The position numbers were made by a program, and so were the translations under genes. A stretch of 64,000 nt of DNA. Source: a virus (lineage: Duplodnaviria > Heunggongvirae > Uroviricota > Caudoviricetes). This document shows, one piece after another, positions 51,428 through 52,073 of the stretch. The stretch lies in IMG/VR virus record IMGVR_UViG_3300035660_000003, positions 22,261 to 86,260 of that record. One strand, written 5' to 3'. Position 1 is the first letter of the stretch; the number at the start of each line of letters is the position of its first letter. The notes beneath the pieces are model-generated. The model had not been told where the DNA came from and searched no databases. It saw only the letters and a list, made by a program, of their open reading frames with translations.

Positions 51428-51448
51428 TATTTAAACTTTGCGTTTATT
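51428..51448 (-). promoter_or_regulatory. consensus BRE/TATA promoter
   Basis: gtatttaaactttgcgtttat. Confidence 0.55.
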
Positions 51449-52073
51449 TTAGTTCACGGTTTAATTCTGCGACTTGTTGTCCGCCAGTCTTGCCTTTCTT
51501 TTCTTTGATTCGTTTAGGCAAATTAACCTTAGCCAGCAATGTAGTCAGAGACAATCCTTCAGTCTTAATTTGCCATTTTAGTGGTAATTTGCACATTATT
51601 CTATCCAATACTTTCTTTGCTATGCCATATGCAACTGCGTCGTCATTCATTGTGATTTCTATGAGCGGACGACCTTTCTTTATCTGTGCCAACCGCATCT
51701 CTGCCGCTCCGAAACTTTGTTTACCCATGCCACTACTGATACGTTCTGCCTTTGCAACACCGACTAAGCCATGACTTCGTGCCTGATGATGTGGATATGA
51801 AGAAATCTTTAAACGATAGTTTTCTTCTCCAATAACCCTCATTTCCCTATGTATGGTTACTCGAACTGAAACCAATGCTTTAGCTGAAACTTGACCGTCC
51901 CTTTCGGCGACCAATGAAATTTTGGCTGGAAAATCCAACTTAGATGAATTTCCAAAGACACTGTGCTTGAAACCTTCAGGGACATCTTGCATTCTCTTAA
52001 TGTATTCCTTGCGAGTGTAAGGCAATTGAATGTGTCTATAATTTCTCGCCAAACGCTTTCCCATATTTATCAA
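51444..52073 (-). CDS. ribosomal protein uL16 (L10e) homolog
   Basis: RLARNYR, PYTRKEYI, YPHH, GMGKQSFG, CKLPLKWQI align to conserved L10e/RPL10 blocks. Confidence 0.65.
   Translation of the reverse strand: MINMGKRLARNYRHIQLPYTRKEYIKRMQDVPEGFKHSVFGNSSKLDFPAKISLVAERDGQVSAKALVSVRVTIHREMRVIGEENYRLKISSYPHHQARSHGLVGVAKAERISSGMGKQSFGAAEMRLAQIKKGRPLIEITMNDDAVAYGIAKKVLDRIMCKLPLKWQIKTEGLSLTTLLAKVNLPKRIKEKKGKTGGQQVAELNRELK

Follow-up and report, generated by a model that had tools for sequence, protein, structure and literature searches.

The complete genome of a head-tailed virus carries an intact gene for the ribosomal protein uL16 (L10e), a universal protein of the ribosome with a loop that reaches the peptidyl-transferase centre (PTC) and the P site. 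The gene lies on the minus strand at positions 51444 to 52064 of the stretch analysed here, a window of 64,000 nucleotides that corresponds to positions 22,261-86,260 of the IMG/VR virus record IMGVR_UViG_3300035660_000003 (G000; 112,412 bp, rated complete and flanked by direct terminal repeats). Its product of 206 amino acids (aa), termed P0001, shows the uL16 fold in a structural model, belongs to a virus-specific clade that is maintained by selection, is distant from the uL16 proteins of the putative host group and bears a clade-specific signature in the P-site loop. We regard it as somewhat probable that this viral uL16 is functional, made during infection and loaded into the 50S subunits of the host.

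The open reading frame (ORF) is, by its sequence and its predicted fold, a full-length ribosomal protein uL16/L10e. The Pfam profile Ribosomal_L16 (PF00252) matched P0001 over profile positions 6-131 of 132 with a score of 71.5 bits (E=8.6e-20), the gathering cut-off being 27.9. Among solved structures, the uL16 of Pyrobaculum was the best sequence match (E=2e-16), and numerous further uL16 chains from archaea and eukaryotes came next. An AlphaFold2 model computed from an alignment of 27 sequences reached a predicted local distance difference test (pLDDT) score of 77 and a predicted template-modelling (pTM) score of 0.71, and the sole stretch of low confidence in the core comprised residues 110-116 at the tip of the P-site loop. 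When searched with Foldseek, the model matched the uL16 chains of archaeal 50S subunits from M. acetivorans, P. calidifontis, T. kodakarensis, P. furiosus and Haloarcula at E values of about 1e-13 as well as eukaryotic RPL10, with template-modelling scores of 0.64-0.66 by query length and 0.76-0.83 by target length. Because the full-length domain lies far above the family cut-off and the fold matches, the assignment to uL16 is real and not a chance resemblance. The first-pass annotation, made from the letters of the sequence, had already recognized a uL16 homologue from a series of L10e/RPL10 blocks, and all of them were located in P0001, namely RLARNYR (residues 3-9), PYTRKEYI (15-22), YPHH (90-93), AERISSGMGKQSFG (106-119) and CKLPLKWQI (158-166).

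The identification of the record as a complete virus genome with terminal repeats and structural genes indicates that the uL16 gene is virus-encoded and not chromosomal. Annotation of the larger genes across the whole record showed that it codes for a major head protein of HK97 type (phrog_544 and Pfam Phage_capsid_4), for a large terminase (phrog_2, Terminase_6N) and for tail or virion proteins recognized by phrogs, among them a protein of 1232 aa at 1291-4989 of the window. Pfam searches further revealed replication genes of archaeal type, which encode an MCM helicase, a family-B DNA polymerase, a RadA/Rad51 recombinase, a LonB-like AAA+ protease and the topoisomerase subunit Top6A. Judged by this gene content, the element is a head-tailed double-stranded DNA virus (Caudoviricetes-like) with an archaeal-type replication module. 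No tRNA genes were found in the virus record. The gene had been described before as lying outside any ribosomal-protein operon, which agrees with the complete record, where no such operon is present; the alternative of a chromosomal contig with a syntenic ribosomal-protein operon was rejected on the same grounds.

The viral uL16 is not an isolated sequence. A word-based search recovered about 30 homologues of P0001 with 48-85% identity, all of metagenomic origin, and a HMMER search among 1.8 billion cluster representatives gave 224 uL16 relatives at E<=1e-3, among which the closest ones (52%) belong to the viral group and the cellular uL16 proteins show 28-40%. By their gene content, the contigs with homologues are viral-like and not chromosomal. 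The 15.9-kb contig L006 displays the same gene order as the virus genome, i.e. trypsin-like protease, RNA ligase, Top6A, uL16 and DruA. More distant members of the group have virus-typical genes as neighbours, namely RNA ligase and DUF6899 on contig L033 (uL16 product P0059, 30% identical to P0001), Lon_C and GT4 on L024 (P0039) and a KaiC-like ATPase on L034 and L035. On L009, L010 and L013, there are series of small genes without Pfam matches. Several relatives come from the sediment sample JGI 3300031877. The ratio of nonsynonymous to synonymous substitutions (dN/dS) of the uL16 gene was 0.15 in the comparison with the L006 homologue and 0.06 in that with a copy on contig C26 of the archaeal genome G001, which is introduced below. 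Core viral genes on the same contigs gave 0.19 (Top6A), 0.15 (RNA ligase) and 0.05 (DruA). The viral uL16 clade is under purifying selection of a strength like that of core viral genes, and the dN/dS values led us to reject a pseudogene. Collectively, the homologues and their neighbourhoods argue that the viral uL16 proteins form an old, diverse and virus-specific clade with conserved neighbouring genes, which is probably carried by a lineage of large (about 110 kb) head-tailed archaeal viruses from sediments. In the INPHARED phage collection, tblastn found no relatives of either the uL16 or the terminase.

A lead to the host was obtained from a scan with the single protein. Among the GTDB genomes, a close copy (87%) turned up in G001 ('uncultured archaeon binchicken_co387_541') alone, a metagenome-assembled genome (MAG) of 1.3 Mb. 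Three of its contigs (C26, C132 and C242) are 75-90% identical to the virus over many kilobases, which suggests that a relative of the virus infects the lineage of G001. The genomes of the 40-60 nearest relatives of G001 are all small (0.3-1.3 Mb), as is typical of DPANN archaea, and in this respect the group is consistent with a DPANN-like affiliation. Stretches of 29-85 nt matching the virus in relatives of G001 were considered as possible CRISPR spacers and dropped, as no flanking arrays were found. The cellular uL16 of G001 itself (P0184 on contig C42) is 33% identical to the viral protein, and the archaeal uL16 proteins of the putative host group range from 28 to 37%. In a tree of 180 uL16 sequences, calculated by a quick maximum-likelihood search in IQ-TREE under LG+C20, the viral clade was well separated from the uL16 of the G001 group and grouped with weak support with other sequences that share its loop signature (xKAER, see below), several of which are situated on viral-like contigs. 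A common clade of viral and G001-group uL16 was rejected by the approximately unbiased (AU) test with a subset of 74 sequences (p=0.014). The low identity together with the outcome of the AU test shows that the viral uL16 is no recent copy of the gene of the G001 lineage, and recent host capture was therefore rejected. Hence, of the two origins offered by the first-pass annotation, an element with its own ribosomal protein is supported by the complete virus genome, the fold-conserved full-length uL16 and the purifying selection on it, while the captured host gene fails in its simple, recent form, given the distance to the host copy and the deep and diverse virus-specific clade; the proposed comparison with host-lineage L10e thus spoke against a recent origin from the gene of that lineage. 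The viral gene may still have been acquired from archaea in the distant past.

The most distinctive feature of the viral clade is found in the P-site loop, which is encoded approximately at 51759-51810 on the minus strand (about residues 85-102 of P0001, ...YPHHQARSHGLVGVAKAERISSGMGKQSFG...; residues 89-106 correspond to about 51749-51802). Here, a near-universal segment with the sequence GADR, which we take to correspond to about A106-R110 of human RPL10, is present in six of six proteins of the G001 group and in 102 of 119 other representatives. All 34 viral-clade proteins that could be read at this site carry xKAER instead, which occurs in none of the six G001-group proteins and in 8 of the 119 other representatives, several of these eight again on viral contigs. 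Moreover, one extra residue between GM and FG (GMGKQSFG) was found in 24 of 35 viral proteins, compared with 0/6 in the host group and 2/126 among the others. The cellular uL16 of G001 bears the canonical archaeal P-site loop (...HTLATGAGADRFSMGMRKSFG...). The viral uL16 thus departs from the canonical GADR motif and represents a variant that has not lost its membership of the family. The alignments point to a conserved, virus-specific change in the loop that extends to the P site and the PTC. An alignment of 27 sequences showed that the family-invariant residues G38, R68, P91, R108, G112, M113 and G119 are retained in P0001, and alignments with Pyrobaculum uL16 and eukaryotic RPL10 showed that the arginine matching R98 of human RPL10, presumably the residue mutated in T-cell acute lymphoblastic leukaemia, is kept in the viral P-site loop. 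The G and M of the GM turn and the SFG residues are also present. Since the invariant residues are kept, the viral uL16 retains every feature needed for the uL16 site, the loop change notwithstanding. The proposed check for conserved loop residues at the PTC accordingly found the invariant positions and the R98-matching arginine, and not GADR. The P-site loop has been described as disordered in free uL16 and ordered on the 50S subunit with P-site tRNA or with the hibernation factor Dri (bioRxiv 10.1101/2024.11.12.623245).

A second clade-specific feature is a basic C-terminal tail, encoded at 51444-51554 (minus strand) and comprising about residues 170-206 (LPKRIKEKKGKTGGQQ...). The tail had been estimated at about 30 aa; it extends over about 37 residues with nine lysines or arginines versus three acidic residues, and its motif LPKRIKEKK..GG is conserved across the viral clade in the alignment. 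As an observation in its own right, the relative P0035 (L034:6001-7632 and L035:2863-4494) contains a LAGLIDADG intein, which interrupts the P-site loop immediately ahead of SFG (splice junction HN|S). An intein in a ribosomal protein is unusual.

The limits of the gene were defined as follows. The TAA stop codon occupies 51444-51446. In the ORF list, the reading frame appears with 209 aa at 51444-52073 on the minus strand and is opened by a TTG. This alternative start (52065-52073, minus strand) overlaps the TGA stop of the upstream gene at 52072-52070, and an in-frame ATG is situated 6 nt downstream of the TTG at 52064, which yields the 206-aa protein. The ATG is the true start, as the protein given in the record and all its homologues begin at this point (MGKRL...). 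Direct reading of the sequence revealed a Shine-Dalgarno-like motif, AGAGGA, at 52074-52079 on the same strand and 9-15 nt upstream of the ATG; it is embedded in the last codons of the upstream ORF of 64 aa, and the two genes appear to be arranged for translational coupling. The gene has a GC content of 40.7%, compared with a genome mean of 35.0% (standard deviation 3.4), and thereby falls into the 96th percentile, but in codon usage it resembles the genome at large (60th percentile of distances) and the adjacent Top6A gene has about 40% GC. The comparison with neighbouring genes suggested by the first-pass annotation therefore identifies uL16 as no recent compositional intruder, and its interpretation as a compositional outlier was rejected.

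How might such a protein act during infection? The uL16 site is the last one to be filled during the maturation of the large subunit and is exchangeable, and the loading of uL16 is linked to a quality check that releases aIF6/eIF6. We infer that the virus-specific paralog is expressed during infection, incorporated into ribosomes and effective in translation. It would enter the host 50S subunit at the uL16 site, probably late in assembly or by exchange once the subunits are mature, because uL16 is both late-loading and exchangeable, and there it would supplement or replace the host's own uL16. Thereby, a virus-type P-site loop with xKAER, and often with one more residue, would be placed beside the PTC. 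Ribosomes could thus stay complete and active while infection impairs host ribosome biogenesis, and the changed loop might retune the behaviour of the P site and the PTC or aid the escape from a host check or defence. The earlier suggestion of translation manipulation is accordingly taken up here as a proposal, whereas the virus-encoded ribosomal protein on which it was built stands.

Several points weigh against this interpretation. The altered P-site loop could impair the incorporation into archaeal 50S subunits, and the substitutions might even yield a defective, inhibitory copy. The assignment of the host is tentative, as G001 is a single MAG and binning can misplace viral contigs. The tree resulted from a quick maximum-likelihood search, in which the deep position of the viral clade relative to the cellular uL16 proteins received poor support. 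Scans of IMG/VR with P0001 and with the clade alignment found no other viral contig with the gene when its own record was excluded, so the viral uL16 lineage is sparsely sampled. Finally, no RNA runs containing the uL16 gene are listed, a blank which is not evidence either way.

A more far-reaching version, which we consider possible but doubtful, is that the swapped loop produces virus-specialised ribosomes, in which an altered handling of P-site tRNA or of peptide bond formation by the 50S subunit would favour viral protein synthesis or confer resistance to host defences directed at the PTC or at uL16 assembly, such as an aIF6/SBDS-type check. The same loop might act in the opposite direction. 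As a dominant-negative decoy, the viral uL16 would bind pre-50S or mature 50S subunits, and its loop would lower their activity or stall maturation, such that host translation is shut off or a host response is blocked. The virus-specific change indeed affects the loop that becomes ordered by P-site tRNA or Dri (bioRxiv 10.1101/2024.11.12.623245), and the fold is kept, which makes binding to the 50S subunit plausible. Dri, an archaeal hibernation factor that binds the 50S subunit and inserts a loop into the PTC and P site, offers an analogy for this inhibitory action only, since it has an unrelated fold and is no uL16 homologue. However, the loop differs by conservative changes only (G→K, D→E and one extra residue), the arginine matching human R98 is kept, and the strong conservation of the protein over its whole length is as compatible with a functional ribosomal protein as with an inhibitor; overall, we judge the decoy unlikely.

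Activity of the viral uL16 away from the ribosome appears very improbable. Binding of RNA in genome packaging, virion structure or association with viral RNA via the basic surface and tail would be in line with the distinctive conserved tail of the clade and with the fact that uL16 is an rRNA-binding protein, but the whole ribosomal fold and the family-invariant residues are kept, and for such a role the conservation of the P-site loop would be needless. We give a shade less credit still to the view that an archaeal uL16 was captured long ago and has been carried along as a passenger without a special role in infection. The uptake of host genes is common in viruses and the GC content of the gene is slightly above the genome average, but a passenger would be expected to decay, whereas the purifying selection matches that on core viral genes; moreover, the position is conserved across divergent viral contigs, the loop signature is specific to the clade and the codon usage is typical of the genome, so that this explanation is largely refuted. 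The metagenomic origin of the record, in turn, could raise the suspicion that the assembly is chimeric or contaminated by a fragment of cellular DNA. Such an artefact has a negligible probability and is already refuted by the complete record with its terminal repeats, by independent viral contigs from other samples with homologues in the same gene order, and by the location of the gene within a cluster of virus genes with no adjoining ribosomal-protein operon. Among these explanations, loading of a functional viral uL16 into host 50S subunits is the one we favour.

The neighbourhood of the gene matches its earlier description as consisting of small Cys-rich proteins and a Top6A-like gene. Upstream, the gene for the Top6A/Spo11-like topoisomerase subunit (PF21180) is located at 52592-54208 and is syntenic with uL16 in L006; between the two, 52070-52545 contains two small ORFs of 94 and 64 aa, the latter with a weak match to DUF4177. 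On the other side, 47333-51311 harbours small Cys-rich genes, whose products carry CxxC pairs, and DruA-family genes. Proteins of the DruA family are otherwise known from Druantia, a system of defence against phages. One DruA-family gene is found downstream of uL16 at 49392-50060 (PF14236, E=3.5e-22), and a second, paralogous one at 47333-48154 was likewise assigned to PF14236 by Pfam; DruA also follows uL16 on the related viral contigs L006 and L007. The presence of two DruA-family genes near uL16 had been missed in the first-pass annotation. Further away, an RNA ligase (57186-58079) and a trypsin-like serine protease (59269-60141) are encoded, which are both syntenic with uL16 in L006. All of these genes are on the minus strand. 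Within the Cys-rich cluster at 48150-50540 (minus strand), a gene-end module is repeated, which encodes KVKVILI* (AAA GTA AAG GTG ATA CTC ATA TGA). It embeds the Shine-Dalgarno-like sequence AAGGTGA, and the ATG of the following gene overlaps the stop codon (ATGA). The repeated junction probably represents a tandem design for translational coupling, with the KVKVILI* peptide tails being conserved as a by-product of the embedded ribosome-binding site.

Other parts of the genome contain further genes of interest. A glycosylation module at 60713-63533 (minus strand), which continues outside the window (L004, genome 86-93 kb), comprises genes for GDP-mannose 4,6-dehydratase/epimerases, a DegT aminotransferase, GT1/GT2 glycosyltransferases, hexapeptide acetyltransferases and a PIG-L de-N-acetylase, and may act on the virion. 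Moreover, the minus strand of the window encodes a papain-like C1 cysteine protease (39483-40247), an SPFH/band-7 protein (31554-32441), a VWA-domain protein (10262-11932) and a KaiC-like ATPase (25642-26637); a KaiC-like ATPase also adjoins uL16 in L034 and L035. The GC skew is negative across the whole window (1-64000), and the genes are oriented on the plus strand at about 1-10 kb and nearly all on the minus strand beyond about 20 kb. The skew and the strand switch probably follow from the direction in which this region of the genome is replicated and transcribed.

Virus-encoded ribosomal proteins as such are not without precedent. Bacteriophages carry bS21, bL12, bL9 and others, which tend to be 'dynamic', exchangeable proteins, and phage-encoded bS21 and bL12 have been experimentally shown to enter the 70S ribosomes of E. 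coli (Mizuno et al. 2019, Nat Commun, PMC6375957). The viral uL16 resembles phage bS21 and bL12 in being virus-encoded, divergent from the host copies and a proposed replacement, and in this respect it may follow the same pattern; however, the phage proteins are of bacterial type and peripheral, whereas uL16 belongs to the universal core of the large subunit and has a loop reaching the PTC, and it is absent from the list of Mizuno et al. (PMC6375957). Among archaeal viruses, eL21 is carried by haloarchaeal tailed viruses (PMC8651126, PMC10541130) and bL19 by a Bathyarchaeia virus (PMC10541130). These are likewise head-tailed (Caudoviricetes-like) viruses with a gene for a ribosomal protein, but the proteins are different ones and neither is located at the PTC. 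Viruses of eukaryotes also encode ribosomal proteins, namely eL40 in FloV-SA2 (PMC11499249) and eS30 (Fau) in the FBR murine sarcoma virus, which differ in their eukaryotic hosts and again in the proteins involved. Compared with the cellular uL16 proteins of Pyrobaculum (9e6q_AN) and M. acetivorans (9znf_AK), the viral protein shares the family, the fold and the invariant residues, but it is virus-encoded and is set apart by xKAER, the additional residue in GM..FG and its own conserved basic C-terminal tail. No report of uL16 in any virus was found in the virus literature. Hence, uL16 is an addition to the known virus-encoded ribosomal proteins and not categorically new, and it is unusual because it combines a place in the universal core of the ribosome, at the catalytic centre, with a conserved change in the PTC-facing loop that is specific to the viral clade.

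If the proposed role is true, viruses would reach the catalytic core of the ribosome and not only exchangeable outer proteins such as bS21, bL12, eL21 and bL19, and the virus may rebuild part of the protein factory of its host during infection. The viral uL16 clade would then also provide a natural system in which it can be seen how far the sequence of the P-site loop can vary. Furthermore, the finding would extend the range of virus-encoded translation components in an unexpected direction within the archaeal viruses.
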